A stretch of DNA of 64,000 nt from Patescibacteria group bacterium (GCA_041659045.1 JBAZZB010000003.1:28212-92211), one strand, 5' to 3'; counted from the stretch's first letter, positions 1,824 through 40,926 are shown. Notes: generated by a model from the letters alone, not told the origin. Made by a program: numbers and translations.

Positions 1824-2405
1824 TCACGTTGAAGTTTTCTTCGGCATCGCACACGCTTCCGGCTCGACAATTTTGCGAGCGAGACTGAATGACGAAAGAA
1901 CAACAAGGACGATACCGATCCATGAAAATTCCTGGCCACGGAGCGGAAGAGCGGCCAGAGCACTGCCCGTGCCAAGCAAACTCGCGAGCAAGGCCGATCC
2001 GCAAGCCGCGCAACCGACACCGAGAAGCCCGACAAGCACGCCGATCGCGCTCGCACCTGCGGCTTGATGCAAACGCACCTGGCGGCGCATGTAGCGCTCG
2101 ATGAACGCGGCGTTCACGCCAAAGAGTGCCGCGAGAACGAGCGTGACGGACCCTCCTTCATGCGCGAACGACACGCGACCGCCCCATAAGGTCTGCAGCA
2201 CGGACTTGAACTTCAAGCCGAAGCTAAAATAGTCTTCGTTCAAGATGAACCCGAGCAGTTTCAGATTCGAAATCACGATGGAAAAAAGCACGATGAACGC
2301 GAAACCGCCAAAAGCAACGAGCCAGCCTTCTGGACTGGAAAACGTTTCTTTCAGCGCGGCGCGCAGGTGACCGATTCTTTTGGCGAGAGGATTGACAGAA
2401 AGCAT
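1824..2405 (-). CDS. integral membrane protein, unknown function
   Basis: Several hydrophobic helices and a GVGCAACGS motif. Track M1 at 2432 is TTG and would leave only 7 nt to the divergent gene, so the first ATG at 2405 (MLSVNPL...) is preferred. Confidence 0.45.
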   Translation of the reverse strand: MLSVNPLAKRIGHLRAALKETFSSPEGWLVAFGGFAFIVLFSIVISNLKLLGFILNEDYFSFGLKFKSVLQTLWGGRVSFAHEGGSVTLVLAALFGVNAAFIERYMRRQVRLHQAAGASAIGVLVGLLGVGCAACGSALLASLLGTGSALAALPLRGQEFSWIGIVLVVLSSFSLARKIVEPEACAMPKKTST

Positions 2406-2442
2406 GTACGCATGATAGCTTCGCGGCACCAAGGAGGCAATG

Positions 2443-2907
2443 ATGGAGAAAAGCCGTATCGCTGTGCTTCACGAAGCGACCGTTGGTCTTCCGTATCCAC
2501 TCGCGTTTCCCTCGATCCTGAAGGCGGCCTGGCGACGGGAGTTTTCCGCTCAACACGACGCGTGGACGCCGAGCAATCCCGCTCTTGGCCAGTGCGCCAT
2601 TACGGCACTGCTGGTGCAGGACAAGTTCGGCGGAGAGATTCTCCGCGCCGTCATCTCAGAGAAGCTCGGCTCGCACTACTGGAACCGCATCGGCGGCCAA
2701 GAGCTGGACTACACCCGCTCGCAGTTCCCGGCGGAGACTGTCATTCCGCCCGGACAACTGGTCGACAGAGTCTACATCCTCGAATCCGAGCGCGCCGTCG
2801 CCGCCGGTACGCCCGAACGGTACCAGCTCCTGTGCGACAGCTTCCGCCGCGTCGAAGAGATGCTCGCGGACTATCGCACGCGCCTCAAATCGCAAACCCC
2901 GACCTGA
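2443..2907 (+). CDS. hypothetical protein
   Basis: AAGGAGG at about 2431-2437 gives good spacing to the second ATG at 2443 (MEKSRIAVLHEATVG...). No motif recognised. Confidence 0.5.
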   Translation: MEKSRIAVLHEATVGLPYPLAFPSILKAAWRREFSAQHDAWTPSNPALGQCAITALLVQDKFGGEILRAVISEKLGSHYWNRIGGQELDYTRSQFPAETVIPPGQLVDRVYILESERAVAAGTPERYQLLCDSFRRVEEMLADYRTRLKSQTPT

Positions 2908-2926
2908 TGGCCGGGGCTTTTCTTTT
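2897..2926. terminator. bidirectional intrinsic terminator between convergent genes
   Basis: CCCCGACC-tgat-GGCCGGGG hairpin followed by cttttctttt. Both flanking stop codons lie inside it. Confidence 0.4.
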
Positions 2927-4853
2927 ACTTTTCTTTGGCGACGTAGCGTCCGTCCCAATCCATCGCTGGCGGTTCGGCGCGATAGGCACGACAACGTTCA
3001 ATATAGAGCTCCGCGGAATGGTCGCCAAAACGTTCGACGATATCCTGAAACGCGGCTTCCGCTTCATCCCAGCGACGGGCGAGGAATGAAGCGAGCGCGG
3101 ATTCGAATCGCGAGGCGAGCTCCCGCGCTTTGTCGTCGACGCGCGAGGTCTCCCCCATCAATTCGTAGACGGCGACGGGTTTTACTTTTCCTTTGACCGT
3201 CACGAGATCGAGACGCCGGCAGAAAAAGGCGTCGCCAAGCTGGCGCCTCACGAATTCCGAAATAAGAATCGTCACGCCGTAAAACTTCGTCAGGCTTTCG
3301 AGACGCGAAGAGAGGTTCACTTCGTCGCCGATCGCCGTGTAGTCGAAGCGCTGCTCGGAACCCATGTTGCCGATAACAACTTCGCCACCGTTCAACCCGA
3401 TACCGACGCGTACGTCCGGAAGTTTCCGCTCGGCCCAATCGGCGCGCAGCGTTTCCAAACGATCGCGCATACCGAGCGCCGTGCGAGCCGCGCGAGTGGC
3501 GTGGTCTGCTTGCGGCATCGGCGCGTTCCAAAACGCCATGATGGCGTCACCGATGTATTTATCAACCACGCCTTCGTGATCGAGAACCACCGTGGTCATG
3601 GCCGTCAGGTACTCGTTGAGCAACGAGACGAGTTCCTCTGGAGTCAGACGTTCGGAGAGCGTCGTGAAGCCTCGGATGTCGGAGAACAGAATCGTCGCTT
3701 CGCGGCGCGCGCCTCCGAGCGAGAGTGGTACCTCGCCCGTTTCGATGCGGCGAATCACCTGCGGCGCGAGATAGCGGCTGAAGGCATCACGAATACGGCG
3801 ACGTTCTCCGCGCTCACTGAGGTAGCGCACACACAATTCAACGACGGCTGTACCGACGATGACAAGAAAGGCATACCACACCGGCAGCAGCACGCCGCGG
3901 TTTGAAAGCGACAACGCGGCAAGGACGTACACGAACACGAAACCAGCTGCGATAAAAATACCGTAACGCAAACGTAACGCGCCGAGCGTCAGGGTCACGA
4001 GCAGTGCGAGGAAAATCGAAAGCGCGACGGAGAGTGCCAAAGGAAGTTCAACAAGAAGACGCGCGTCTCCCTCACGCAAAATTGCCGCGAAGTTCGCTTG
4101 GATCTCGACGCCGTTCATTAATTTTCCATTGCCGAACGGGGTCAACGCCGCGTCATGCAAATCGGGAGCTGTTGCACCGATCAACACCGTCTTCCCTTTG
4201 AAGACTTCAGGAGAAACGCGACCTTCGCGCACATCGATGAACGAATAGGTTGGGAAGGTTCCGGGACCGCCGTAGAACGCAACGCGCACAGACGTCTCAC
4301 GAAGCGGCACGCGCGAGGCAACGAGTTCGGCAAACGATTGCGAAAACGTCGCGCGTCGCACAACACCATCGGCGTCAGGCAGAAGTGTCGTCTGTCCGAC
4401 GCGTCCTTTCACCGCTTCCGCAAAACGCGGTAACGGCTTCACGTGCGTTTCCGTCACGCGTTCGTCCGGCAGAACGACATTCGGCGCGCGACGAAGCGCG
4501 GTTTCGAGCTCCGTATCATCCGTTTCCGTCGAGGCTTCCGAAAACGTGACGTCGTACCCAATCGTCGTCGCTCCGGCATTCGTCAGCGTATCGAGCATGT
4601 CGGCATGCAACGCACGCGGCCACGGCCAACGACCGAGCGCCGCGATCGACGCGTCATCAATGCCGATAATCACGATGTCAGTTGGCGGACTCCTCTTCTC
4701 GATCAACTTGTCCTGAAGCCGGGCCTCAAACGAGCGCCAGTAGCCGATCGTTTGGAGCAGCGTCACGCAGGCGACCCACGCCAAAGCCGCCGCAAGTGCC
4801 AAGAGGCGGTTGCGGAGATGGGAGCGAGACGCGGCGCGTGGCTGGCGAGTCAT
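2925..4853 (-). CDS. CHASE2 sensor-domain adenylate/guanylate cyclase (class III)
   Basis: N-terminal TM and CHASE2-like region (IGIDDASIAALGRWPWPR...), multiple TM helices, and a C-terminal class III cyclase core (ATILFSDIRGFTTLSE...KYIGDAIMAFWNAP). Confidence 0.85.
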   Translation of the reverse strand: MTRQPRAASRSHLRNRLLALAAALAWVACVTLLQTIGYWRSFEARLQDKLIEKRSPPTDIVIIGIDDASIAALGRWPWPRALHADMLDTLTNAGATTIGYDVTFSEASTETDDTELETALRRAPNVVLPDERVTETHVKPLPRFAEAVKGRVGQTTLLPDADGVVRRATFSQSFAELVASRVPLRETSVRVAFYGGPGTFPTYSFIDVREGRVSPEVFKGKTVLIGATAPDLHDAALTPFGNGKLMNGVEIQANFAAILREGDARLLVELPLALSVALSIFLALLVTLTLGALRLRYGIFIAAGFVFVYVLAALSLSNRGVLLPVWYAFLVIVGTAVVELCVRYLSERGERRRIRDAFSRYLAPQVIRRIETGEVPLSLGGARREATILFSDIRGFTTLSERLTPEELVSLLNEYLTAMTTVVLDHEGVVDKYIGDAIMAFWNAPMPQADHATRAARTALGMRDRLETLRADWAERKLPDVRVGIGLNGGEVVIGNMGSEQRFDYTAIGDEVNLSSRLESLTKFYGVTILISEFVRRQLGDAFFCRRLDLVTVKGKVKPVAVYELMGETSRVDDKARELASRFESALASFLARRWDEAEAAFQDIVERFGDHSAELYIERCRAYRAEPPAMDWDGRYVAKEK

Positions 4854-4860
4854 ACGTGAA

Positions 4861-6402
4861 TCAGTTCACCGCCGGAGAAACGGGGCCGAGAACGCGCACG
4901 GTATCAGAAGCCGTGAAGAGGCCGAGCGTGTGTTGATACGAAACAGTCAGTTTCGACTCACCATCAGCCTCGCCCGCGAAAAAAGCATTCGCACGCATCT
5001 GGCCGATCGGCATCAAGCCGCTTGTCGACGCAAGCGACCATGCCGCCTGCTTTGTCACGTCTTCGCTGCGCCCATCGCTCCAACGCAAGAACGCGTTGAA
5101 GGAACCGGACTCGCCGAAACCGAACGTAAAGCGCTGCGCTGAAATTTCAAGACGCAGAGGCTTCGGTGCGGTCGGCGCAGGGGGAACGGACGGCGCGATC
5201 GTTTCGTTGTTTGTCGTGACGATCGGTGCCGCGCTCGGTTCATCAACGGGAACCGTTTCTGAAACAGGTGCGGTTCCCTTCTCGAACTTCTCGCGTCGCT
5301 CCAATACGCGGCGCAACGTTTCCGCCATATCAGGCGAAACGCGCATGGCGGCATCCTTCATGCTTGAAGCGAGGTCGGCATGATGCGCGACATACTCAAC
5401 GAGGCGCGGATGCACGCGACAGACGACGCCGTTTACTTGCGCGTAGGTACAGAACTGTTCCGCGCGCTTAACCAGAGCGTCCGTCGCCTCGGCATTGCCG
5501 CGCTGTGCCGCCGCTAAAGCTTCGGCCACAAGACGCGACAAGCCACGTGTCGCGATACGCTGAGCATCTCCGTGGTTTTTCTTGAGTACGGCACGCTCTT
5601 TCGCCTCAACGCGCACGCTCATGTCCGGGCGCGGCACGAAGCGCTCGAGGTCACCCTGCAGGCGTTCTTCGACGCGCTTCTTATACGAAGCGTCCTTCTC
5701 GAGGTTGCCGCGGACCCAGGCATCTTCGCGCAGATCCTTCGCGTCTTCGATCTTCCAAGCGGACGCATTCAAGCGTTGAATCGTGCCAGGCTTCGGCACG
5801 GCGTACCGCAACTTCTTTCCCTCCACGACCTCAGAGGCGGCGCCGCCACTCACCGGAGTAACGCTGACAAGATGCTCGGCGACGTACACGTCGTTCGTCG
5901 CGCTTGTGGCATCGACGAAGAACGCCGTGCCACGCACCGTCGCCACAAGATGCGGCGTTCGCACTTCATAGGAAGATTCCGGCGCCATGAAATCAAGCAA
6001 GCGCGACCACAAACGACCGCTCTCCACGAGAATCTTGCCGACAAAAGAATTTGTTTCCTGATCCCATTCCAAACCGTCGAGCGTGATCGTCGCATTCTCA
6101 TCGAGACGCGCAACACCTTGCTCGAAAAGATTCAGACTGGCCGATGAGTCCTCGCCCGTACGCACGGCGTCGCCCTGCGCGACTTGCGTTTCTTCCGCAA
6201 TCACCGTCCACTCCCCGCTTCCAGCCTTGCGCACTTCAACCGTACCGCGTTCCGGCAGAACAAGCGCGCGATGCGGCACCGTCGCAGGCGTCCGTTCGGC
6301 AAGAGAAGCCGCGGCGGAATCAAGCAGCGCGCGTTCGGCAAAAAATCCGAGCACGAGAAGCGCAAGGACACCGAGCAGGATTTTTTTCAAGTGTTTCATC
6401 AT
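4861..6402 (-). CDS. secreted FecR-domain protein with C-terminal Ig-like (Big_2-like) domain
   Basis: Signal peptide MKHLKKILLGVLALLVLG. FecR-like segment ...HLVATVRGTAFFVDATS... Track M1 is TTG; ATG at 6402/6399 preferred. Confidence 0.55.
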   Translation of the reverse strand: MMKHLKKILLGVLALLVLGFFAERALLDSAAASLAERTPATVPHRALVLPERGTVEVRKAGSGEWTVIAEETQVAQGDAVRTGEDSSASLNLFEQGVARLDENATITLDGLEWDQETNSFVGKILVESGRLWSRLLDFMAPESSYEVRTPHLVATVRGTAFFVDATSATNDVYVAEHLVSVTPVSGGAASEVVEGKKLRYAVPKPGTIQRLNASAWKIEDAKDLREDAWVRGNLEKDASYKKRVEERLQGDLERFVPRPDMSVRVEAKERAVLKKNHGDAQRIATRGLSRLVAEALAAAQRGNAEATDALVKRAEQFCTYAQVNGVVCRVHPRLVEYVAHHADLASSMKDAAMRVSPDMAETLRRVLERREKFEKGTAPVSETVPVDEPSAAPIVTTNNETIAPSVPPAPTAPKPLRLEISAQRFTFGFGESGSFNAFLRWSDGRSEDVTKQAAWSLASTSGLMPIGQMRANAFFAGEADGESKLTVSYQHTLGLFTASDTVRVLGPVSPAVN

Positions 6403-6406
6403 AGGG

Positions 6407-6697
6407 TTAGACGCCAAGCATTGCGCGAAGTTCTTCGGACGGCTCCCATGGCGGATCAAACGTCACTTCGATATCGACAACGCGGAGATCGAGCATCAAA
6501 AGAGATTGCTTCAGTTCGCCGATCAGCTGCGGTCCGTATGGGCACAGCGGCGTCGTGAACGTCATCTTCACGTGCAGCTGCTCTTCGTCTTCTGACAATT
6601 CAAAACCGTAAATCAACCCCAGCGTCCAAATGTCGATGTGGAGCTCGGGATCCTGCGTGTGCTTGAAGACCTCCGTGATTTTTTCTTTCATCGTCAT
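6407..6697 (-). CDS. sufT: Fe-S assembly protein SufT / DUF59 (MIP18 family)
   Basis: ...HTQDPELHIDIWTLGLIYGF...TTPLCPYGP is a typical DUF59. Start chosen at ATG 6697, which leaves 1 nt after the sufC stop. Confidence 0.7.
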   Translation of the reverse strand: MTMKEKITEVFKHTQDPELHIDIWTLGLIYGFELSEDEEQLHVKMTFTTPLCPYGPQLIGELKQSLLMLDLRVVDIEVTFDPPWEPSEELRAMLGV

Positions 6698-6698
6698 A

Positions 6699-7433
6699 TC
6701 AGTTGGCAATCGCTTCATAACCTTCTTTCCCGATCCGTTCCGCGAGTTCGTTTCCGCCTTGCGCCACAATCTTTCCGTCCTTCATGACATGCACGACGTC
6801 CGGCGCCAAGGCCGCAAGCAGTTTGGGATTATGACTGATGACCAAAATGCCGATCTTCGGTCCGCGCAGGCGCGCCAGTCCGTCCGTGACGATCTTGAGC
6901 GCGTCGATGTCGAGCCCGGAATCCGTTTCATCAAGCACCGCGTACGACGGATTGAGCACCGAGAGCTGAAGGACTTCGGCACGTTTCTTTTCACCACCAG
7001 AGAATCCCGCGTTCAAGTGACGTCGCGCGAACGTTGGGTCGATTTTCAAATCTTCCATGCGTGCTTGGAGCAAGGCGTGGAATTCAAGGACTGAAAGCGG
7101 TGCTTCCTTCACGGCGTTAAAAGCCGTGCGGAGGAAACTCGAAAGCGTCACTCCCGGAATCTCCGGTGTAGCCTGCATCGAAAGGAAGAGGCCCGCCTTG
7201 GCACGTTCGTGCGGCGCGGCGTTCGTGATGTCGCGACCATCGAGCGTGATCGCCCCCTCCGTGACGACATACGAAGGATGACCCGCGAGTGCGTTCGCGA
7301 AAGTCGACTTGCCGGAACCGTTCGGCCCCATGAGCGCGTGCACTTCGCCTTTCTTCACTTCAAGAGAGACACCGTGGACGATGTCTTTGCCTTCGCGGGT
7401 GACTTTTAGATTTTCGATTTTGAGAGATTGCAT
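6699..7433 (-). CDS. sufC: Fe-S cluster assembly ATPase SufC
   Basis: Walker A GPNGSGKST plus ABC signature. Start at M13 (MQSLKIENL) by homology with the SufC N-terminus. Confidence 0.9.
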   Translation of the reverse strand: MQSLKIENLKVTREGKDIVHGVSLEVKKGEVHALMGPNGSGKSTFANALAGHPSYVVTEGAITLDGRDITNAAPHERAKAGLFLSMQATPEIPGVTLSSFLRTAFNAVKEAPLSVLEFHALLQARMEDLKIDPTFARRHLNAGFSGGEKKRAEVLQLSVLNPSYAVLDETDSGLDIDALKIVTDGLARLRGPKIGILVISHNPKLLAALAPDVVHVMKDGKIVAQGGNELAERIGKEGYEAIAN

Positions 7434-7434
7434 A

Positions 7435-7839
7435 TCAATGTGAGCACGAGGTGTTAGGATCGGACTCACGAGGCTGGGAGAGGGCGGACTTCAGCGCACG
7501 CAATGAAAGCATCGCGCATTTCATGCGCATCGGTCCGACATCGATACCGAGCAACTCTAGGATATCGCGTTCCGAGATTGCCAGCACCTCCGCGAACGGT
7601 CGGCCCTTGATGCGATCCGTCAGCAGAGAAGCGCTCGCCATGCTGACAGCACAACCTTTTCCATCGAATTTCACGTCGGCCACGCGATCGCAGGCATCCA
7701 GTTTCAGAAACAATTCGATCGTGTCGCCACAACTGGGATTCAACTCGCGCGCGCGTCGCGAAGCATCCTCAAGCCGCCCCGCGTTATGCGGATGCTTGTT
7801 GTGATCGAGGATGTTCTCCATGTAGATATTTTCTTCCAT
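7435..7839 (-). CDS. sufU: SufU / IscU-like Fe-S scaffold (NifU N-terminal domain)
   Basis: ...NPSCGDTIELFLK...GKGCAVSMASASLLT... conserved Cys ligands of SufU/IscU. Confidence 0.85.
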   Translation of the reverse strand: MEENIYMENILDHNKHPHNAGRLEDASRRARELNPSCGDTIELFLKLDACDRVADVKFDGKGCAVSMASASLLTDRIKGRPFAEVLAISERDILELLGIDVGPMRMKCAMLSLRALKSALSQPRESDPNTSCSH

Positions 7840-7840
7840 A

Positions 7841-9049
7841 TCAGAGTTTCAGTGTGACCTTGGCTTTTTCTATCGCCACGACGAGTGCTTCAACATCTTC
7901 CTTTCCATTATAGATGCCGAAGCTCGCGCGGCACGTGCCACTCAGACCCAGCTTGCCCATGAGCGGCATCGCGCAATGATGCCCGCCGCGCACGGCCACG
8001 CCTTCGCGATCAAAAAGCGTCGCAAGATCGTGCGGATGCGCACCAGAGACCTCAAACGAAATCACACCGATACGTTCCCCCACTGTCGGACCAACGATCT
8101 TCACGCCTGGAATTGCGGAAAGCTTTTCAAGCGCGTACGCCGTGAGTTCGAGGTCATGCGCTTCGGCAATATCCATACCGATCGCTTCGAGATACTGGAT
8201 TGCCGCACCGAGACCGATCACGCCCGCAATGTTCGGCGTGCCTGCCTCGAATTTCATCGGCGCATCGTTCCAGGTCGAACCTTCGTATTTCACTTCGCGA
8301 ATCATGTCGCCGCCGTATTGCGCGGGTTCCATTTTTTCCAAAAGCGCTTTCTTGCCGTAGAGCACGCCGACACCGGTCGGGCCGTATGCTTTATGAGCGG
8401 AGAACGCCAGGAAATCGCAATCGAGGTCGCGCACGTCGATCTTCATATGAGGAATCGACTGCGCTGCGTCGAGAATCAGAACGGCGCCAACCGCGTGCGC
8501 AAGCGCTGCGAGTTCTTTCGCGGGGTTGACCGCACCGAGCACGTTGGAGGCGTGCACGATCGAAACCGCTTTCGTCTTCGACGTGATGAGCGCACGCGCC
8601 GCCTCCATATCAAGACGATACTCGCTTGTGATCGGAATAAATTTCAAAACGAACCCATGGCGCTTTGCGGCTTCCTGCCACGGCACCAAGTTGGCGTGGT
8701 GTTCCATTTCGGTCAGCACGACTTCGTCGCCAGGACCGAACGTGCGGCCGAGCGAGGTTGCGAGGAGATTCAAAGATTCGGTTGTACCTTTCGAAAAAAC
8801 AATTTCTTCCGGCGCGGCATTCAAAAAATTCGCCACCGTGCCACGCACGGCTTCATAACGTTCAGTTGCCTCCCCCGCCGTCTTGTACATGCCGCGATGC
8901 ACATTGGAGCGAAAATTTTGGTAGTAGTCGTTCATCGCTTCGATGACGGAAACCGGCGTGAGCGACGATGCGGCCGAATCCAAGAACGCCCGCATGTCCA
9001 TGACATGGAGCGAAGGAAAATCTTTTTGGATGACGTTGGGAAGTTGCAT
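7841..9049 (-). CDS. sufS: cysteine desulfurase SufS (class V aminotransferase)
   Basis: ...HANLVPWQ..., ...SAHKAYGPTGVGVLYG... PLP-lysine region and C-terminal ...GGHHCAMPLM.... Start at M11 (MQLPNVIQKDFP) by homology. Confidence 0.9.
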   Translation of the reverse strand: MQLPNVIQKDFPSLHVMDMRAFLDSAASSLTPVSVIEAMNDYYQNFRSNVHRGMYKTAGEATERYEAVRGTVANFLNAAPEEIVFSKGTTESLNLLATSLGRTFGPGDEVVLTEMEHHANLVPWQEAAKRHGFVLKFIPITSEYRLDMEAARALITSKTKAVSIVHASNVLGAVNPAKELAALAHAVGAVLILDAAQSIPHMKIDVRDLDCDFLAFSAHKAYGPTGVGVLYGKKALLEKMEPAQYGGDMIREVKYEGSTWNDAPMKFEAGTPNIAGVIGLGAAIQYLEAIGMDIAEAHDLELTAYALEKLSAIPGVKIVGPTVGERIGVISFEVSGAHPHDLATLFDREGVAVRGGHHCAMPLMGKLGLSGTCRASFGIYNGKEDVEALVVAIEKAKVTLKL

Positions 9050-9050
9050 A

Positions 9051-9806
9051 TCAAGAAAGCTTGGAGAGGTACGGTTCAACGAACGCTTCGATCAACATTG
9101 CTTCCGCGGACGCGCGATCGAGTCCGCGCGACATGAGGTAGAAAAGTTTTTCCGCATCAATCCGGCCGACCGTCGCGGCATGCGAGCAACGCACGTCCTG
9201 GTTTTCGATCTCGAGCATCGGTACGGCGTCGATTTCGGCGGAGTCGGAAAGCAGCAACGTTTCCTCTTTCTGACGACTGACGCAGCCGGGCGCGTTTTTC
9301 TCGACACGCACGAGACCGCGAATAATTGCTTTCGCGTCACCCGAAAGCACGCTGCCAACGTGCAGATTCGAAATCGTGCGCGGCGCGGCGTGAATAATTT
9401 CGTGCTTCACATCAAAGCGCTGGCGATTCGTGCCGCGCACAAGACTCGTCGCTTCGACTTCAGCACCTTCGCCCTCAAGACGCGTGACAAACAACGCGCG
9501 CGAAAATTCCGGCACGGAGCATTCGTCGATCCATTCAAGTTTCGCATTCTTCGCAAGACGTGCTTCGCGACGCACGAATTCAACCGAAGACGTCGCGCGC
9601 GCGACGTATGTGACGCGTGCGCCTTCGCCGATCTCGAGACGAATCTCAAGATCGCGATCGCCTTCAGGATCTTCGACAATGCGCATCGTGGCGTCAGCCG
9701 GAACTTCGATCGTCTTCGTTTGCGCAACCAAAGCCGCCCGGTCGAAACCTTCCGGGTGTTCAGGCATGAAAATGCCGATGCCGTATTTGAGAAGTTTCGT
9801 TGCCAT
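9051..9806 (-). CDS. sufD: SufD, short form (251 aa)
   Basis: C-terminal SufBD signature ...HAATVGRIDAEKLFYLMSRGL...EAFVEPYLSKLS. The N-terminal half typical of proteobacterial SufD is missing. Confidence 0.8.
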   Translation of the reverse strand: MATKLLKYGIGIFMPEHPEGFDRAALVAQTKTIEVPADATMRIVEDPEGDRDLEIRLEIGEGARVTYVARATSSVEFVRREARLAKNAKLEWIDECSVPEFSRALFVTRLEGEGAEVEATSLVRGTNRQRFDVKHEIIHAAPRTISNLHVGSVLSGDAKAIIRGLVRVEKNAPGCVSRQKEETLLLSDSAEIDAVPMLEIENQDVRCSHAATVGRIDAEKLFYLMSRGLDRASAEAMLIEAFVEPYLSKLS

Positions 9807-9807
9807 A

Positions 9808-11199
9808 TCAGCCGACAGAACCTTCCATTTCGAGTTCGATCAGCTTGTTGAGCTCCACCGCGTATTCGAGTGGCAGCGACTTGATGATCGGCTCGACGAA
9901 GCCGCTCACGATCATGCGCATGGCCGCGTCCTGCGAGAGGCCGCGCGACATGAGGTAGAACAACTCTTCCTCGCCGATCTTGCCGACCGTCGCTTCGTGT
10001 GCGACATCGACTTTATCGGTCGTGATTTTCATGAACGGATACGTGTTCGAAACCGAACCATCATCGATCAAGAGCGCATCGCACGCCACGCTCGACTTTG
10101 AGCCTTCTGCGGCCGACGTCGCGCTGACATAGCCGCGATACGAAGAAATGCCGCCGCCTTTCGAGATGCTCTTGGCGCGGATCGTGCTCGTCGTGTTCGG
10201 CGCGGCGTGAATCACTTTCGAACCGGTGTCCTGATTCTGTCCGGGACCAGCAAAAGCAACGCCGAGTGAATGCGACTGCGAACCTTCGCCGCGCAAAATC
10301 GAGCACGGATAGAGCATCGTGACGCCCGAGCCCATGTTGCCGTTCACCCATTCGACGATGCCGTTCTTGTCGACAACCGCGCGCTTGGTGTTCAAGTTGT
10401 AAGTGTTCTTGCTCCAGTTCTCGACGCTTGAATAACGAATGCGCGCGCCTTCGTGCACATGGAGTTCTACGCAACCAGCGTGAATCGAACTCGCGTTGTA
10501 GCGAGGTGCCGAGCAACCTTCGATGTACTGCACCTCCGAGCCTTCGTCGGCAATGATCAGCGTGTGCTCGAACTGACCGCCGCGTTCGGCGTTCATACGG
10601 AAGTAGGCTTGAAGCGGAACGTTCACCTTCACGCCCTTCGGCACATAGATGAAGGTGCCGCCGCTCCAGACCGCCGCGTGCAGCATGATGAACTTATGAT
10701 CGTGCGGCGGGATACAATCCGTCATGAAGTATTTCTTCACGAGCTCCGGATATTTCCGGACGGCTTCATCCATGTTCTCGAAGATGACGCCCTTCTCCTC
10801 CCATTCTTTTTTCAAATTGTGGTAGACGACTTCGGAGTCGTACTGCGCGCCCACACCCGAAAGCGAGTGGCGTTCCGCTTCAGGAATGCCGAGTTTCTCG
10901 AACGTCTCGCGAATCTTGTCCGGCACCGTCGCCCACGACTGCGATTCTTCCGCGTCGGGACGCACGAAATACGTGATCTGCTCGAGATCGAGTTTCGAAA
11001 GGTCAGGCCCCCACGAAGGCGTCGGCGTGCGCTTGAACATCTCGAACGCTTTGAGACGCAGCTTCAGCATCCAATCCGGTTCATTCTTTGACGCCGAAAT
11101 TTCTCGAACCACTTCTTCAGTGAGTCCGAGTTCTGCTGTATGGCGCGTTACGCCTTCGGCTGCTTTGTCGTAGATGTCGCGAAAATCTTTATCGGCCAT
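9808..11199 (-). CDS. sufB: Fe-S cluster assembly protein SufB
   Basis: Full-length SufB signature including ...HEATVGKIGEEELFYLMSRGL.... Start at M19 (MADKDF), 1 nt after the rrf2 stop. Confidence 0.9.
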   Translation of the reverse strand: MADKDFRDIYDKAAEGVTRHTAELGLTEEVVREISASKNEPDWMLKLRLKAFEMFKRTPTPSWGPDLSKLDLEQITYFVRPDAEESQSWATVPDKIRETFEKLGIPEAERHSLSGVGAQYDSEVVYHNLKKEWEEKGVIFENMDEAVRKYPELVKKYFMTDCIPPHDHKFIMLHAAVWSGGTFIYVPKGVKVNVPLQAYFRMNAERGGQFEHTLIIADEGSEVQYIEGCSAPRYNASSIHAGCVELHVHEGARIRYSSVENWSKNTYNLNTKRAVVDKNGIVEWVNGNMGSGVTMLYPCSILRGEGSQSHSLGVAFAGPGQNQDTGSKVIHAAPNTTSTIRAKSISKGGGISSYRGYVSATSAAEGSKSSVACDALLIDDGSVSNTYPFMKITTDKVDVAHEATVGKIGEEELFYLMSRGLSQDAAMRMIVSGFVEPIIKSLPLEYAVELNKLIELEMEGSVG

Positions 11200-11200
11200 A

Positions 11201-11626
11201 TCACTTCGCCACCCCACTCCGCCCTGCGGGCTCCGCGGGGCAAGCGTCGGCAATCGTCGTATTCATAAGCGTCGCCATGACCTGACCCTGCACTTTCGTG
11301 AGGATGCCCGAGTCATGATGATGCGTGAGCGCCGTACACGCTTCGCGTTCCATCGGACCTTCGACGGCGTTCATCACCTCGGCGACCGTCAGCGTTTTCG
11401 CGTCGCGCACCAAGCGATAGCCGCCTGTCGCGCCGCGCACGCCTTCGATCATCTTGGCCCGACGCAATTCACCCGCAACCTCCTCCAAGAACTTACGCGA
11501 CTCCCCACTCTTCTTCGCTACCTCTTCAATCGAAAGAGGCCCCGCATCCTGAGGACGCTGGGCGAGTTCCGAAACGAGGAGAAGGCCGAGCTGGGCCTTG
11601 CGAGTGACTTTAAGAAGGGATTTCAC
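11201..11626 (-). CDS. Rrf2-family transcriptional regulator (IscR/SufR-like)
   Basis: The N-terminus from a GTG at about 11626 (V)KSLLKVTRKAQLGLLLVSELAQ matches the Rrf2 HTH start (cf. MKLSTKGRYA). AGGAA lies 3-4 nt upstream. The track's ATG at 11659 would add 11 aa and consume the promoter. Confidence 0.7.
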   Translation of the reverse strand: MKSLLKVTRKAQLGLLLVSELAQRPQDAGPLSIEEVAKKSGESRKFLEEVAGELRRAKMIEGVRGATGGYRLVRDAKTLTVAEVMNAVEGPMEREACTALTHHHDSGILTKVQGQVMATLMNTTIADACPAEPAGRSGVAK

Positions 11627-11649
11627 AATTCCTAGTATTCTACTGGGAA

Positions 11650-11678
11650 TTAATACCATAGCCGCAAAATACGGTCAA
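11650..11678 (-). promoter_or_regulatory. candidate sigma70-type promoter for rrf2-suf, overlapped by an imperfect inverted repeat
   Basis: Reverse strand reads TTGACC-N17-TATTAA. The -10 and TSS region is overlapped by the inverted repeat TAGTATT-N12-AATACCA (about 11633-11658). Confidence 0.35.
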
Positions 11679-11693
11679 GAGTACCGCTAAACC

Positions 11694-11723
11694 ATTGACA
11701 AAACCGTATTCCCCTGCTATTCT
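11694..11723 (+). promoter_or_regulatory. candidate sigma70-type promoter for the 11818-13049 cassette
   Basis: TTGACA-N17-TATTCT, about 90 nt upstream of the ATG at 11818. Back-to-back with the rrf2 promoter. Confidence 0.35.
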
Positions 11724-11817
11724 TCTCAGTCCGAAATCCACCTCGTATGAGGGGGTCGGCCGCAAGGCTCAGGGGTCGTTTCTGCCCGTCAGAGACATTC
11801 GAGCTAGGAGGTGCCGT

Positions 11818-12165
11818 ATGGCACAAGAAAAGGTTACGTTCGACGTTCTCCAAGGTCCTTCGAAGGGAGACCTGCAAACCGCAGTGTTCCACGGAAAGTC
11901 CGAAGAGCAGCTCCGGGTCCGGTTCAAGATCAAGGCAACGCAGGAGACGACCAAAAAGTCTCATCTCCGCCAAGATCTCCGTCTGGCCACGCTCTTCTTG
12001 AAGGCTCGCCTCCAGGGGGCCGTGCGTGCCGATGGTTCCGGTGAGAACTGGGTGATCAACGGCATGCTCTACCTCGACGATGTGGAGACCGCCTTCTCTG
12101 GCACGTACAGCACCCAGCGCCGCACCGGATTCTTCACCCTCACGTTCGAAGGAGTCGCTCCATGA
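11818..12165 (+). CDS. hypothetical protein, about 115 aa
   Basis: AGGAGG 6 nt upstream of ATG 11818 (MAQEKVTFDVLQGPSKGDLQ...). The track's longer ORF from 11695 lacks an RBS. High GC at third codon positions. Confidence 0.5.
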   Translation: MAQEKVTFDVLQGPSKGDLQTAVFHGKSEEQLRVRFKIKATQETTKKSHLRQDLRLATLFLKARLQGAVRADGSGENWVINGMLYLDDVETAFSGTYSTQRRTGFFTLTFEGVAP

Positions 12166-12605
12166 TCCAACGCGTTCTTTCCTACGTCTGCCTCTCCCTC
12201 GCCACCGCACTCCTCCTCTCCGTGCTCGTCAACGACTGCGGTGACGAAGTTGCCGACGGCAGGCGCGAGCGCAACACGCTCGTCTCCCGGATCGCCGGCA
12301 TCGAGCGTTACTACCACTGCGAGCACACGGAGACCGTCTACCACGATGGCGACGGCGTCCTGGAAGAGCGAGGATACGAATGGGTCTGGGTCTGCGACGA
12401 TGCACCCACCCTGATGCCGAAGAACGGCACCTACGTACCGCTCTCTACGGAGACGATCACACAGAGCCACTGGCTCCGCACGGTCGCGACGATCGAAACC
12501 TGGCACGAAGGCGTCCTCGGAGGCCTTCTCGCCGTGATCGGTCTCATCCTGCTCGTGCGTTCGTTGCCACCTCTTCCACCGAAGCCCGACACGCCTCTCC
12601 CCTAG
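12162..12605 (+). CDS. hypothetical secreted/membrane-anchored protein, 147 aa
   Basis: ATGA overlap with the upstream gene. N-terminal hydrophobic signal (LSYVCLSLATALLLSVLVNDCGDE), C-terminal hydrophobic segment and Pro-rich tail. Third codon positions almost all G/C. Confidence 0.5.
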   Translation: MIQRVLSYVCLSLATALLLSVLVNDCGDEVADGRRERNTLVSRIAGIERYYHCEHTETVYHDGDGVLEERGYEWVWVCDDAPTLMPKNGTYVPLSTETITQSHWLRTVATIETWHEGVLGGLLAVIGLILLVRSLPPLPPKPDTPLP

Positions 12606-13067: not shown

Positions 13068-13545
13068 ATAAAAAATGACGCGGACAGAGTCCGCGCCGAG
13101 GTGGGGGTTCAGTGTGTCCGATCATCCGTAGCTCGGATGTCGAACGGGTGCGATCAGTGATCGCGGGGGTTGGCGGCCTTCACGAGGCTCAGCCGCAGCA
13201 GACGCGACCCCATCGCACCCGGCGCCGACCGATCACATGGTCTCGGTCGAGCCGCCGACGCCGGCGCCGATGCCGGTGTTGGTTGAGGTGTCGCTATCAC
13301 GGGCGTCGTCGTTGACCCCGAGGTTCCACTTGATGTGGGTGGGGTGCTTCGGCACCATGGACGGATGGATCTTCATCGTTGCGAGCCTCCATGAGGAGTT
13401 GCGTCACGACCCAACGCGGGCCGCTTCGGAATCCAAGCTATCAAAACTTTTTAAGGTCGTCAAGGGGAATACCCGGCAACCTTGCTTGTTTTCGGCCTTT
13501 TCGCTATAGTAGCCCTCGTAATCAACTTTCCGAGATCGGCCCCCA

Positions 13546-14097
13546 ATGCGTATTCACCCGAAAAAATTCCGCCGCCCCGTCGACGTCGCGCCGCTCTATC
13601 GGGCCAACTTGCAAATCCAGGCACCCGAAGTTCGCGTCATCGATGAAAACGGTGTGAACCTGGGGGTCCTTCCGACGGCACAAGCCGCCGCGACGGCGCA
13701 GGAACGCGGCTACGACCTCGTCGAGGTCGACCCGCGACCGCAGCCGCCGATCTGCAAGATCCTGAACCTCGGCCAATTCAAGTACGAACGCGAGCGCGAG
13801 ATGCGTAAGCAAAAGGCCAAGGCCAAGCAGGTCGAAGTCAAAGGCATCCGCCTCTCCCCGCGCATCGGAGCGCACGACCGCGAGACGCGTATGAGGCTCG
13901 CCGAACGCTTCCTCGAAGAGGGAGATAAGCTCAGAATCGAGATTATCTTGCGAGGTCGCGAGAAGGCCCACGCCGAACTGGCGAAAGGGGTCATCCAGAA
14001 CTTCGTGAAGTCGCTGCAAGAGAAATTCCCTTTGAATATCGAGCAAGCGATCGCCGTTCAAGGAGGCCAGTTGACAATGATCGTTGGAAAGAAGTAA
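13546..14097 (+). CDS. infC: translation initiation factor IF-3
   Basis: ...NLQIQAPEVRVIDENGVNLGVLPTAQA...DLVEVDP..PPICKILNLGQFKYE... and the C-terminal domain. No SD before ATG 13546; infC genes often use non-canonical starts, so the true start is uncertain. Confidence 0.85.
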   Translation: MRIHPKKFRRPVDVAPLYRANLQIQAPEVRVIDENGVNLGVLPTAQAAATAQERGYDLVEVDPRPQPPICKILNLGQFKYEREREMRKQKAKAKQVEVKGIRLSPRIGAHDRETRMRLAERFLEEGDKLRIEIILRGREKAHAELAKGVIQNFVKSLQEKFPLNIEQAIAVQGGQLTMIVGKK

Positions 14098-14109
14098 ACT
14101 ACGCCCGCT

Positions 14110-14310
14110 ATGAAAGCCAAAACGAAGAAGGCCTTCGCCAAGCGCATCAAAGTCACCAAAAACGGGAAACTTTTGAAGCGCGCCGCCGGCCAGGATCACT
14201 TTAATGCCCGTGATACGGGCACGCAGACCAAGCGCAAGCGCCGGGACACCAATATGTCGGAGTCCTACCGCCACTCGCTCAAGAGCCTGCTTCCTCACCA
14301 CAACGTCTAA
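14110..14310 (+). CDS. rpmI: 50S ribosomal protein L35
   Basis: MKAKTKKAFAKRIKVTKNGKLLKRAAGQDHF... is a canonical bL35. Confidence 0.9.
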   Translation: MKAKTKKAFAKRIKVTKNGKLLKRAAGQDHFNARDTGTQTKRKRRDTNMSESYRHSLKSLLPHHNV

Positions 14311-14313
14311 TCT

Positions 14314-14673
14314 ATGCCGCGCGTCAAACGAGGTCTCGTCCGCGCCCGCAAGCGCGCCCGCATCTTGAAAAAGACGAAGGGCATGATGTGGGGCCGCAAG
14401 AGCAAGATCAAACTTGCTAAAACCGCCGCCACCAAGGCTGGCGCCTATGCCTACCGCGACCGCCGCACCAAGAAGCGCGTCATGCGCTCTCTCTGGCTCC
14501 TGCGTATGAACGCGGGTCTCCGCGAACTCGGACTGTCCTACAGCAAGTTCGCAGGCATGCTCAAGAAGGCTAAAATCGGCCTCGACCGCAAGGTTCTCTC
14601 CGATTTGGCCGCCAACCACCCCGAAATCTTCAAGGCTTTGGTCGAAACGACCGTCAAATTGGCCTCGAAATAA
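14314..14673 (+). CDS. rplT: 50S ribosomal protein L20
   Basis: MPRVKRGLVRARKRARILKKTKG...YRDRRTKKR... is a canonical bL20. Confidence 0.9.
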   Translation: MPRVKRGLVRARKRARILKKTKGMMWGRKSKIKLAKTAATKAGAYAYRDRRTKKRVMRSLWLLRMNAGLRELGLSYSKFAGMLKKAKIGLDRKVLSDLAANHPEIFKALVETTVKLASK

Positions 14674-14686
14674 GATCAAATCAAGA

Positions 14687-30182: not shown

Positions 30183-30659
30183 TTATTCTACACAAAATAC
30201 CGGACGCTGTCCTGCGGCACTCGCTTCTTGCTGACGCGTCGCGACCCACGTTTTATCCTGCGTCTTGCCGTCCGTCATCGCTTTGAGCGGATCCGTGCAA
30301 AAAGAACGCACTTCGTCGAGGTCGCTGAGCCCGTCACTATCCGTATCCTTGCGATTCGGATCCGTGCGAAGCATCGCCTCTTCCCCATCGATCAAGCCGT
30401 CGTTATCGCTGTCTTTTTGTGCCGCTTCGGACAAGATCGGCGGAGAATCTCTTTCAAGAGGAACAATGCCATCGGGCTTCGACGTCGCCGGGGAGCCTGG
30501 AACCGGCGTCGGTTTCGCCCCAGTTTCTGTAACAGGAGCAGGAACCTCGACCCCCGGAACCGCAAGGCGTGCCGCGCGAGCGCGGAGGATGATCACGACC
30601 GTTGCGGTTCCTGCGAGGAAAACGGCGACAAGGCTAATGATGATGACAAGTCGCTTCAT
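30183..30659 (-). CDS. membrane-anchored protein with TSP3-like repeats (paralog)
   Basis: N-terminal TM (LVIIISLVAVFLAGTATVVIIL), DSDNDGLIDGEE and DTDSDGLSDLDE repeats. Starts 1 nt after the giant gene's stop. Confidence 0.6.
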   Translation of the reverse strand: MKRLVIIISLVAVFLAGTATVVIILRARAARLAVPGVEVPAPVTETGAKPTPVPGSPATSKPDGIVPLERDSPPILSEAAQKDSDNDGLIDGEEAMLRTDPNRKDTDSDGLSDLDEVRSFCTDPLKAMTDGKTQDKTWVATRQQEASAAGQRPVFCVE

Positions 30660-30660
30660 A

Positions 30661-33600
30661 TTAATCGTTCGCGTTCGGGCCGTCGGCTCTGTTTACGTAC
30701 TTGTTCTTCAGTGTGAAACGTCCTTCGGTCGAGGAGGCCGTCTTGTCGATACGACCGATGTACCACATGCAAGGGTTTCCAGAGATGTCCGAGACGCTCG
30801 TGAGTGTGCGAGTCGTGCCGGTTGTGATACCAGAGACGCTCGCAGCTGATCCTGCTTCGATCGTGAAGATGGAGTTTCCTTTGATCGTCGAGCTGGCTCC
30901 CTTCCACCAACCGGTGTTGCGATCGAAGAGCGGTGCCAGGCCGTAGTTTCCATCAACGAAGCAGCTGCCGCCGTTGGCAAAGACATGGTAGGTACCCTGC
31001 GGCAATGACTGGGTCGAGAGCACCATGATTTCAGGGTCTGTTGCGTGCGTGCCGCCCGTTACGTCCCAGAAGAGCTGGATGTGATCGGTCGAGAAGTTGC
31101 CGTTGCCGACATAGCGCGTATCCGGTGAGCCGTCTTTCCAGCCGAAGTAACGCGTTTGTCCCGCGAGCGGACCTGAGCTGTAGACCGCTTTCACGTACAA
31201 GTCGACTTCGTTTGCTGCCGTGTGCGGCGTAGGCCACGAGATCTTGAAGCGGAAGTCGCCTGGGAGAAGTGTGCCGTTGTCGCAACCGCCGGTATAGAGA
31301 CCACAACCTCTTGAGCACAGCACCTGGCCGGCCGTACCGGCACCCTGTGAGGCGCAAGACGGGGCCGCGCCGCCCGCGAATCTGTTTGTGTCGCAGACTT
31401 CACCGTAGGTCGATTGAATCGTATTGTCGCCGCAATAGCCGCCATTCGGATCGTAGACGCAATCGTTACGGCAGACGTACGTCGTGCCTTGGCCGCGCGC
31501 TTCCGGATCACCCTGACCATCGCACTGCTCACCGAACAATCCTTGCTTCACGCCATCACCACAGAACGCCGCGCTCTTCGCATTCGTGCCGAAGCAGGCG
31601 TTTGAACAGTAGTTACAAGAACCATCGAGACGATACGCGACGCACGGACCATTTGCTCCGCATTCGGCATCGCTCGTACAAAGGCGACCGTTGACCTTAC
31701 ATTTTCTGGCCGTCGCGGCCGCTTGCGTGTTGGTGTACGGCTCCGGCTGACACTGCGTGTTATACGCAATGCACTGACCTTCGCCACCCTGACAATACTG
31801 ACCTGCGGCGCAATCTCCAGCAGCGCGGCAAGGCGCACCTTCCGGCGCAGCCGTACCTGTGCCCGTATACGGAGCGTAGGTGCCCGGGTCGAGTTCCAAC
31901 CCCGTACCATCAAAACCGGTATCAGCGCGGTCTGGGGGCGTTGTCGCAGTGGTGACAACGAGGTTCTGCGTGCGCGCCGACATGTTTCCATTGCCATCGA
32001 ACGCGTTGATCGTGATCGTGTGGATGCCCGCTGAAAGCTGACCGACGTTGACGGAGCAAGCCGCGGTCGCCAGGCGCGGATTAAACCGACAGGTTGTTCT
32101 CAATACTTGGACAGCGGCCGTCGTGAGATAGATATCGATGTTGTCGACGAGTGCGGCAGCGTCCGTCACATCCGAAACGGTGATGACAACCGAGTCGTTC
32201 GTTGTCGGACTTGTCGGAGCTGTCGTGATCGCGCCAATCGCGGGAGGAGTCGTGTCGCCAGGAACGCCGGCATTGCACTCACCGGGGCCGCACGTCGCGA
32301 AGGTGACGATCGAACCAGCAAAACGTCGCGCGGCCTCACCAAGAGGACCGAACATCGGAATCTCCACATCAGAACGCGCGAACGTTGATGAGGCGGGTGC
32401 GGCACTCGTGCTCGTGGACGCGCCCGGATAGTTGCGGCAGACGCCCGGCAAGCAGTCGTTGTTCGTCGTGCAACCCTTCACCCCGCTCGTATCAGACGGA
32501 TTCTGGTACGTGCGGCTGCACCAAGCTGTCACCGGACCTGGGTCGCACGTTTCCGGCGGCGCCGAAATTGTCCTATCGCCACAGAAGGCACCGGAAATTG
32601 TTTCAATGGAGCAATCGTTCTTGCAGTAGTTGCAGACAGAACCGTATTGCGGCGTGCAGAGAACTCCGTTGGCCGTGCCGTTGTCGCATTGTTCAACGCC
32701 GGTGCGTACGAAACCATCGTTACAGACGTTGAGCCTGCAGGTCGCGAGACACGTGCCGTTCGGAGAGTTTGCCGCGCCAGCATCGCACTGCTCGGCACCT
32801 TCAACAACACCGTTGCCACAAGCACCGGAAGGACGGCAGATTGACCAATCGTTAAAGGTGCACGCATCGCCAACAGGTTCCGTTGCCGCTTTGCAGCTCT
32901 TGGTACGCGTTTGTGGAAGACCTCCGGTTGTGGCGGCACAGAGCGAGCATGTTTCACCCGTGGCGCAATCAGAAGTTCTGGCGCAAGAAGCGAAGTCGCG
33001 CGGCGCGGTATTTGTATCAACCAACGAGAAGCCGGTTGGGACACAAACACCCTGGGTACTTGTCTGGTTTGCATCGCATTGTTCACCACCGTTGGTACTG
33101 CCATCACCGCAACGAGGACCGGGACCACGGCAGTCCCACGCACAGAAACCGTACTCGCCGTTTCTGGCACCGTCATCACACACTTCAGAACCATTTTTCA
33201 CGCCGTCACCGCAGAAATTCATGCGATCGGTACACACGGACGGATACGGCAAGCCGGAGCAGTCGGAGTTCGTACTGCACGCTTGTCCAAGGTCACAGCT
33301 TCCGTCCGCGCAGTTGCCGTCGAACGACGCGCGCTTGGCGATGTTGACGCAACGCTTCACGCAACCAAGACTACCGCTGCGGCAGCGACCGTACTGGCCG
33401 TTTTGAGCGCCATCATCGCACGATTCACCAGCAAACGATTCAAGGGATCCGTTGCCACACGCAGCAGCTCCAGGGCAAGCCGTCTGCACTTGCCATGTGC
33501 AAGCAGCGTTGCACGTTTCAAAATCTTGTCCGCCGGAGGCACAGGCGACGTTGCGCGTCATGCCGACTTCGCACTCTTCTGTACCTTCAAGCAAACCATT

Positions 33601-40923: not shown

Positions 40924-40926
40924 AGG

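Follow-up and report, generated by a model that had tools for sequence, protein, structure and literature searches.

How ribosomes reach the internal genes of an operon when most of those genes lack a Shine-Dalgarno (SD) site is a question raised by the Fe-S cluster assembly (SUF) operon of an uncultivated Patescibacteria/candidate phyla radiation (CPR) bacterium. In this operon seven consecutive minus-strand open reading frames (ORFs), rrf2-sufB-sufD-sufS-sufU-sufC-sufT, occupy positions 11626..6407 of a 64,000-nt stretch of DNA (GCA_041659045.1 JBAZZB010000003.1:28212-92211; GC ~57%), the whole of which is called the window here and supplies all coordinates. Translational coupling is usually described through ATGA or TGATG overlaps, with an SD site lying inside the upstream gene. 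A preliminary description of the suf operon instead reported an identical TGA-T-ATG junction at every gene boundary, an SD site at the first gene only, an unusual gene order and a SufD of 251 aa, and took the six identical junctions to imply obligate termination-reinitiation coupling. The choice of the next start by post-termination ribosomes is itself still debated (review PMC12548453).

One Junction at Six Successive Gene Boundaries

When the junction sequences were re-derived, by reading the minus strand and by pattern search, TGA-T-ATG (CATATCA on the plus strand) was recovered at six of six boundaries, namely rrf2/sufB (11197..11203), sufB/sufD (9804..9810), sufD/sufS (9047..9053), sufS/sufU (7837..7843), sufU/sufC (7431..7437) and sufC/sufT (6695..6701), all on the minus strand. 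At each of them the upstream gene ends in frame at TGA and the downstream ORF opens at ATG, all stop-start distances are +1 nt, and the downstream frame is in every case +1 relative to the upstream one. The heptamer TGATATG is present in 11 copies on the two strands of the 64 kb, against an expectation of 2.32 +/- 1.42 from 100 dinucleotide-preserving shuffles of the window, none of which reached 11; six copies are the successive suf boundaries, one copy in sufS and one in a FecR-like gene downstream of the operon are out of frame, and three lie elsewhere. The six-junction pattern is far beyond chance. Upstream in-frame starts offer little room for another reading, as the sole alternative ATG, 21 nt 5' of the sufT start, arises from a TAT-GAA codon pair that is TAC-GAx in most relatives and is thus not a conserved start.

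The gene calls were likewise upheld by Pfam and NCBIfam profile searches. SufB (463 aa, 9808..11199; TIGR01980, 700 bits vs cutoff 346), the SufC ATPase (244 aa, 6699..7433; TIGR01978, 315 vs 213), the SufS cysteine desulfurase (402 aa, 7841..9049; TIGR01979, 536 vs 475) and the SufU sulfur-transfer protein (134 aa, 7435..7839; TIGR01994, 114 vs 92.5) all exceed their NCBIfam cutoffs, while sufD encodes a compact 251-aa form (9051..9806; PF01458, SUFBD_core, 188 bits) and the first cistron an Rrf2-family protein (141 aa, 11201..11626; PF02082, 79.6 bits; GTG start in the window). The last gene of the cluster encodes a SufT-type DUF59 protein (96 aa, 6407..6697; PF01883, 31.9 vs 23.5), which carries the DUF59/FeS_assembly_P domain and scores below the cutoffs of the NCBIfam equivalogs TIGR02945 (65.6 bits) and TIGR03406. 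The N-termini that follow from the proposed ATG starts align to positions 1-13 of the NCBIfam family models.

Conservation of the Junction in Relatives

The junction was compared in 15 non-redundant relatives whose SufD is 57-90% identical to that of the window. The protein collection contains no sequence identical to the latter, and its closest counterparts there are 251-aa metagenome proteins (75-90% identical). The same operon occurs in a Patescibacteria group bacterium (L002) and a Minisyncoccota bacterium (L004) and, more distantly, in Candidatus Uhrbacteria and Parcubacteria. The comparison found stop-T-ATG in 15 of 15 relatives at rrf2/sufB (with TAA as the stop in three), at sufB/sufD and at sufD/sufS, and in 10, 7 and 10 of the informative relatives at sufS/sufU, sufU/sufC and sufC/sufT, respectively. 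The seven junction columns are invariant across relatives, the one exception being G/A in the rrf2/sufB stop. The adjoining codons diverge at the amino-acid level, the last sense codons in window and relatives being AAG/AAA/GCT/GCC, GGC/GGT and TCT/TCC/GCC at junctions 1-3 and CTC/ATC, CAT/AAC/AAA/GCC and AAC/AAG/GAA/CGC at junctions 4-6. The C-terminal tails of Rrf2 and SufU vary in length, and that of SufU also in sequence, with the same junction at their end. As judged from this sequence comparison, the stop-T-ATG junction is selected, not accidental.

Departures from the junction are informative in their own right. ATGA overlaps take the place of stop-T-ATG in L089 and L003, and the exceptions at sufS/sufU are either an ATGA overlap or a spacer of ~90-100 nt, the latter in L085, where it is a palindromic insertion, and in L001 and L090; L090 further carries a NUDIX gene between sufC and sufT. 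Spacers of 2 nt also occur (TGAgtATG, TGAatATG, TAAttATG, TGActATG), in which the stop is followed by any of g, a, t and c and position -1 is always T. The single heptamer of the preliminary description thus holds within the window but not as an indivisible signal, given TAAtATG at rrf2/sufB in three relatives and these 2-nt spacers.

The insertion in L085 belongs to a palindromic element of ~87-92 nt, resembling a miniature inverted-repeat transposable element (GTCATTCTGAGCGnAGCGAAGAATC ... GTTCAGGATGAC), which was seen at L085:5120-5210, L085:8970-9061 and L002:4125-4210, that is, in the rrf2 5' untranslated region (UTR) of L085 and L002 and at the sufS/sufU junction of L085; this ~90-nt insert is absent from the window. 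The sufS/sufU spacers of L001 and L090 are of similar length and different sequence, and the gene that follows still opens with an SD-less tATG. In addition, the gene calls of the source collection miss the conserved, homology-supported tATG of sufS or sufT by 6-54 nt in four relatives (L081:7756-7806; L085:7756-7812; L087:4388-4438 and 6713-6721; L088:9238). The error is systematic at coupled starts without an SD, and start annotation in the clade would benefit from a stop-T-ATG rule.

Operon Trait and Lineage Trait

The two elements of the junction, its +1 spacing and its T at -1, have different distributions. In six relatives, for which the source collection's gene calls were used after three sufS and two sufT starts had been reset by hand to the homology-supported tATG, the +1 distance was found at 30 of 37 suf junctions and at 2 of 20 other close junctions, the latter spanning -4 to +12 nt. 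The exact +1 distance is concentrated in suf, and these counts rule out a habit of the lineage as a whole. The window itself holds three or four +1 pairs outside suf, namely LytR/Der (TAAtATG), Pth/TruD (TGAcATG), a giant ORF with a TSP3-repeat protein gene (TAAtATG) and possibly a TAGcATG at 16327, which is also readable as a -8 overlap; between rpmI and rplT the spacer is 1, 2 or 3 nt among relatives and the T at -1 is kept. Other suf loci, scanned by pattern in the same way for each group, are dominated by -4 overlaps (29/69 junctions in Gemmatimonadota, 21/51 in DPANN archaea, 19/72 in other bacteria) over +1 junctions (1/69, 7/51 and 5/72, respectively), with the proviso that long antisense ORFs contaminate the -4 class as counted by pattern in these high-GC genomes and that T at -1 of ATGA overlaps is claimed for individual suf cases only.

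The T at -1 is more widely spread. In the same six relatives it precedes 33 of 34 coupled suf starts, 9 of 14 other coupled starts, 13 of 25 uncoupled SD-less starts and 3 of 23 SD-led starts, and in the window it stands before the first ATG in 48% of long ORFs, compared with 10% of ATGs that are internal or out of frame. T at -1 is therefore a wider mark of SD-less starts in the lineage, not one of suf only. The possibility that the T serves as a post-stop (+4) termination context was rejected on the evidence of the 2-nt spacers, in which the base after the stop varies and -1 stays T.

Initiation Signals and Local RNA Structure

About half of the uncoupled genes of the lineage have GGAGG-type sites, for which anti-SD duplexes of -10 to -15 kcal/mol are predicted, so that the absence of such sites in suf does not reflect a genome-wide loss. 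The duplexes predicted 5' of sufD, sufS, sufU, sufC and sufT amount to -6.7, +0.1, -2.7, -1.7 and -1.7 kcal/mol. The statement that only the first gene has an SD site accordingly survives for five of the six downstream genes but fails for sufB, which is preceded at -21 to -10 by the G-rich, SD-like stretch GGAGTGGGGTGG (anti-SD duplex -11.5 kcal/mol, in the first percentile of operon windows). This stretch sits in the DNA of an 11-residue C-terminal extension of Rrf2 and is the only case in the window of an SD site inside the 3' end of an upstream suf gene; it is not conserved in relatives. The extension itself (CPAEPAGRSGV, 11204-11240, minus strand) is missing from seven orthologues, and its DNA creates the sole SD-like sequence before an internal suf gene. 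The SD of rrf2 is weak (AGGA, -4.2 kcal/mol, 3-nt spacing) and serves a GTG start at 11626. With respect to structure, 60-nt windows centred on the starts of sufD, sufS, sufU, sufC and sufT have predicted minimum free energies in the 91st-100th percentile of the operon, which places them among its least structured 9%.

Many first genes, in the window as in relatives, show a -10-like TAnnnT box 6-9 nt 5' of their ATG, and such a box without an SD was noted at the window starts 18573, 21983, 30176, 51030 and 61034. On sequence grounds, a TAnnnT box so close to an SD-less ATG suggests leaderless mRNAs. Genomes of GeneMarkS-2 group C combine frequent leaderless transcription with a Pribnow-like box ~10 nt upstream of first-gene starts (PMC6028130), and the window has candidate boxes of this kind, predicted from sequence, as well as SD-led genes. 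Strong GGAGG sites were observed at the window genes 2440, 11818, 12702, 14848, 16322 and 55404, several of the SD-led genes being located in segments of higher GC (0.60-0.61). A search of the window for tRNA-fMet and 16S rRNA found neither, tRNA-Asp and tRNA-Val being the only tRNAs present.

Probable Termination-Reinitiation at the suf Junctions

The invariant spacing in suf, the free spacing at other junctions of the same genomes and the absence of SD sites together make termination-reinitiation the best explanation of the suf junctions, and it is held here with reasonable, though far from complete, confidence. Under this model, a ribosome terminating at UGA would not be fully released but would shift a few nucleotides downstream and reinitiate on the adjacent AUG, where U(-1) may form a fourth base pair with A37 of the initiator tRNA and so replace the SD in fixing the start. 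A stop-start window of -8 to +6 nt is taken as indicative of termination-reinitiation, and coupling falls steeply with distance, short overlaps being enriched among genes for heteromeric complexes (Huber et al., 2023; PMC10666635). All six suf distances are co-directional and fall within that window at +1. SufB/SufD/SufC and SufS/SufU work as complexes, and coupling would link the output of their genes.

The geometry of the junction may have a simple reason. A TGATG junction (-1 overlap) cannot have T at -1, and an ATGA junction (-4 overlap) allows it solely where an NTA codon gives the upstream protein a C-terminal Leu, Ile or Val, whereas TGA-T-ATG would be the shortest junction that keeps U(-1) while constraining neither protein. 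Experiments in E. coli support a quadruplet pairing of U(-1) with A37 (PMC10018350), and the near-invariant U(-1) of the suf starts fits such pairing, by analogy with which the +1 distance would be explained.

Several observations weigh against this interpretation, or at least against its strictest form. The hand-over of ribosomes is deduced from geometry and conservation, and A37 and the anti-SD tail are assumed for this organism, their RNAs lying outside the window. In E. coli and Haloferax, reinitiation usually fell by 50-90% once the SD was removed (PMC6728339), so that SD-less reinitiation may be inefficient. The low structure of the junctions suits direct entry as well as reinitiation, and argues against the type of coupling that operates by RNA unfolding. 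A whole essential operon would be poorly driven by a first cistron whose start is weak (GTG, AGGA). Further, relatives with a disrupted junction (a spacer of ~90-100 nt or 8 nt, or the NUDIX insertion) keep intact, SD-less downstream genes, which implies that at least those cistrons are translatable without a +1 junction. The coupling proposed in the preliminary description is thus supported by the +1 distance, the conserved junction and the five SD-less starts of six, but its qualification as obligate is not, because five of the six junctions are open to direct entry, because L085, L001 and L090 keep SD-less tATG starts after ~90-100-nt spacers or the NUDIX insertion, and because a weakly started regulator as first cistron would throttle the whole machinery. 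From the sequences, coupling in suf is probably strong but not obligate, and it is likely that some ribosomes also enter directly, independently of an SD, at the open tATG sites.

In the alternative scenario that survives best, each suf gene would be initiated independently and de novo, without an SD, at an open, A/U-rich U-AUG, and the 1-nt spacing would follow from compaction combined with a requirement for T at -1, TGA-T-ATG being the shortest junction without overlap that keeps this T and leaves the last residue of the upstream protein free; no ribosome hand-over would be involved. CPR genomes are compact, five of the six junction windows are in the 91st-100th percentile for lack of structure, SD-less tATG starts follow ~90-100-nt spacers or longer gaps in L085, L001, L090 and L081, and 13 of the 25 uncoupled SD-less starts of the lineage have T at -1, all of which such entry would accommodate. 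However, compaction alone accounts neither for a spacing that stays constant in 15 of 15 relatives at three junctions when non-suf junctions of the same genomes range from -4 to +12, nor for the drift of the rpmI/rplT spacer between 1 and 3 nt with its -1 T kept; moreover, a -10 box 6-9 nt upstream gives many uncoupled SD-less starts a leaderless look, and leaderless initiation is a route that is closed inside an operon. Independent initiation as the full account is consequently considered unlikely, although it deserves to be taken seriously. A possible base pairing between UGAU and the AUCA located before CCUCC in the tail of 16S rRNA is weakened by the occurrence of UAAU variants. A further scenario would have an endoribonuclease cut UGAU|AUG to release monocistronic, leaderless mRNAs read by 70S ribosomes, and it could draw on the leaderless initiation suggested by the -10-like boxes of many first genes and on the invariant U|A step shared by the junctions, which are predicted to be single-stranded. 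It is nonetheless pure inference and highly improbable, as the motif occurs in several forms (TAAtATG, TGAgtATG, ATGA overlaps), nothing points to a longer recognition site, and the exact +1 spacing to the stop would not matter to a nuclease. Finally, a programmed +1 frameshift or UGA-U read-through fusing neighboring Suf proteins, suggested by the same +1 frame relation at all six junctions, was rejected with near certainty, since the last sense codons vary among junctions and relatives with no conserved slippery site, the ATG and N-termini match family models, and ATGA overlaps and long spacers substitute freely in relatives.

Comparison with Known Systems

If termination-reinitiation is accepted for suf, the junctions represent a known kind of arrangement, very short stop-start coupling, in an unusual conserved form: +1, U(-1), SD-less and six in a row. 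They share with the coupled pairs of Huber et al. (2019, 2023; PMC6728339, PMC10666635) their co-directional order, a distance within -8 to +6 nt, the presence of genes for complex subunits and a conserved junction. They differ from those ATGA and TGATG pairs in having a +1 distance in place of the near-universal -4 or -1, uniformly over six successive junctions, in the fixed U at -1, and in five restart sites of six lacking an SD although the lineage uses SD sites at uncoupled genes. No group among the 24 prokaryotic groups of Huber et al. (2019) had an SD quotient considerably below 1 (PMC6728339), and the pattern of SD usage in suf is the opposite of that seen in those groups. With regard to U(-1), the preference for U directly 5' of AUG is common to suf and to the data of Hollerer and Jeschek (2023; PMC10018350); however, in E. 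coli the U(-1):A37 pair is a modest modulator of SD-led initiation, whereas here U(-1) stands at 33 of 34 SD-less restarts, where its role would be by analogy. Literature searches on start-codon context or coupling in Patescibacteria/CPR found nothing specific.

The operon thus offers a natural, conserved case of six successive, non-overlapping +1 restarts, five of them SD-less, with a near-invariant U at -1 in a lineage that uses SD sites elsewhere. If the coupling is real, U(-1)AUG beside a stop codon would be sufficient for reinitiation, and a functional U(-1):A37 quadruplet pair would gain support beyond E. coli reporters. A broader proposal, that the clade uses a distinct stop-U-AUG restart signal in which U(-1):A37 replaces the SD after termination, SD sites being reserved for uncoupled genes, is tentative and rather doubtful at this stage; if it holds, the suf operon would provide a natural seven-cistron test bed for SD-independent reinitiation.

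Promoter and Rrf2 Regulator

The operon would be driven from a single sigma-70-type promoter, the elements of which were identified in an alignment of the upstream regions of ten relatives. The -35 box TTGACC (11673..11678, minus strand) lies in a CTTGACC that is invariant in this alignment, and 17 nt after it follows the extended -10 box TGgTATTAA (11650..11658, minus strand; TGnTAyyAA in relatives), which an automated promoter-pattern scan did not list because the hexamer ends in A. The rrf2 start codon is a further conserved element of the alignment; relatives have ATG at the homologous codon, where the window has a 2-nt deletion and GTG instead. A longer rrf2 ORF from an ATG at 11659 was rejected, as it runs through the -10 box. 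A scan of the 2400-12200 region, which contains the operon, gave terminator-like sites at no more than the frequency seen after shuffling and no convincing internal promoter. The suf genes are accordingly predicted to be co-transcribed from this one promoter.

The palindrome AATTCCCAGTA-N3-TACTAGGAATT (11627..11651, minus strand), an inverted repeat with 11-nt arms that are 91% complementary, covers the end of the -10 box together with the predicted start of transcription and the short 5' UTR. Relatives conserve both of its arms, in the form AATTCCyAGTA-N3-TACTAGGAATT. By its position and conservation it is a probable operator for the Rrf2 protein of the first cistron, which would act as a repressor. 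Rrf2 carries the family domain (PF02082, 79.6 bits) and exceeds the cutoff of TIGR00738 (81.6 bits vs 73.3), and scores below cutoff for all equivalog models (IscR, NsrR, RirA, CymR, suf_reg_Xantho). Its sole conserved cysteine, C97, is followed by a conserved HxH (8 orthologues) and the three-cysteine cluster motif is lacking, so that Rrf2 is not of the standard three-cysteine IscR/NsrR type.

Upstream of the operon lies a divergent, SD-led gene of unknown function (11695-12165, plus strand; start 11818), with its own TTGACA-17-TATTCT promoter, the -35 box of which corresponds to a conserved TTTGTCAA upstream of the suf promoter in relatives. This gene adjoins suf in L081 and L083 too.

Gene Order and the Compact SufD

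The gene order described as unusual proved to recur. B-D-S-U-C(-T) was found in all relatives, in distant Patescibacteria (L007, L010), in many loci of DPANN Woesearchaeota and in metagenome-assembled genomes (MAGs) labelled Binatia and Vicinamibacterales, whereas the other bacteria sampled had C-B-D-S-U. The M. tuberculosis sufRBDCSUT operon (Rv1460-Rv1466), the single SUF system of that organism, likewise places a regulator first, keeps sufB-sufD and sufS-sufU adjacent and ends with a DUF59 sufT, so that a terminal sufT is normal there (PMC9045647). Relative to it only sufC is displaced, following sufU and not sufD; the regulator is of the Rrf2 family and not SufR, and SufD has 251 aa. The Firmicute sufCDSUB cluster (Streptococcus mutans; PMC8264796) also combines a SufS-SufU pair with SufBCD, but has the order C-D-S-U-B against B-D-S-U-C-T here, and neither a regulator nor sufT.

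The order B-D-S-U-C(-T) is common to other Patescibacteria and DPANN archaea (L005-L031), whose clusters differ from the window in having mostly ATGA overlaps (in DPANN in particular) or longer spacers; the shared order suggests transfer of the suf cluster between these two groups, both of which are small-celled. A Patescibacteria-type rrf2-B-D-S-U-C-T operon was also seen in MAGs labelled Gammaproteobacteria, Binatia and Vicinamibacterales (L001, L010, L011, L015), and SufB of L001 is 95% identical to that of the window; these contigs are probably mislabelled or mis-binned.

The description of SufD as the C-terminal half of the protein is consistent with its alignment and structural match. 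Residues 107-244 align to residues 258-395 of the 423 of E. coli SufD, ~150 N-terminal residues are missing and the CSH motif is conserved. An AlphaFold2 model (predicted local distance difference test score 94.4) shows a beta-helix and two C-terminal helices, and in a Foldseek comparison it matches 2zu0_B, E. coli SufD in the SufC-SufD complex, with template-modelling scores of 0.82 (query) and 0.51 (target) and a root-mean-square deviation of 2.2 A. The TIGR01981 score (197.8) is under the cutoff of 222, and the SUFBD_core domain is recognized at 188 bits. SufD lengths grade with phylogenetic distance from 251 through ~294 to 305-400 aa. As modelled, the 251-aa SufD is a real compact form, consisting of the core and the SufC-binding end without the N-terminal domain. 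Both the gene order and the compact SufD are lineage traits and not in themselves a discovery.

Neighboring Genes and Other Features of the Window

Two minus-strand genes follow sufT, one for a FecR-domain protein (4861-6402) and, 3' of it, one for a CHASE2-guanylate/adenylate cyclase (2925-4853), with the junctions TAAccctATG and TGAttcacgtATG. These genes (2925..6402) are probably co-transcribed with suf, yet they are not core suf genes; the pair is located 3' of sufT in L081 and L087 and absent from L083, L088 and L089.

Elsewhere in the window, the giant ORF of 3420 aa (30661-40923, minus strand) has as its upstream neighbor a T4SS-pilin/Big_5 protein gene (40927-42708; junction TAAcctATG) and as its downstream neighbor the TSP3-repeat protein gene (30183-30659; junction TAAtATG), and the whole of 30183-42708 looks like the giant surface-protein clusters common in CPR genomes. 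Two antisense ORFs were also noted, one of 385 aa (13522-14679, minus strand) overlapping plus-strand infC-rpmI-rplT and one of 153 aa (11174-11635, plus strand) overlapping minus-strand rrf2; both are high-GC artefacts, which would mislead a gene caller that favors the longest ORF.

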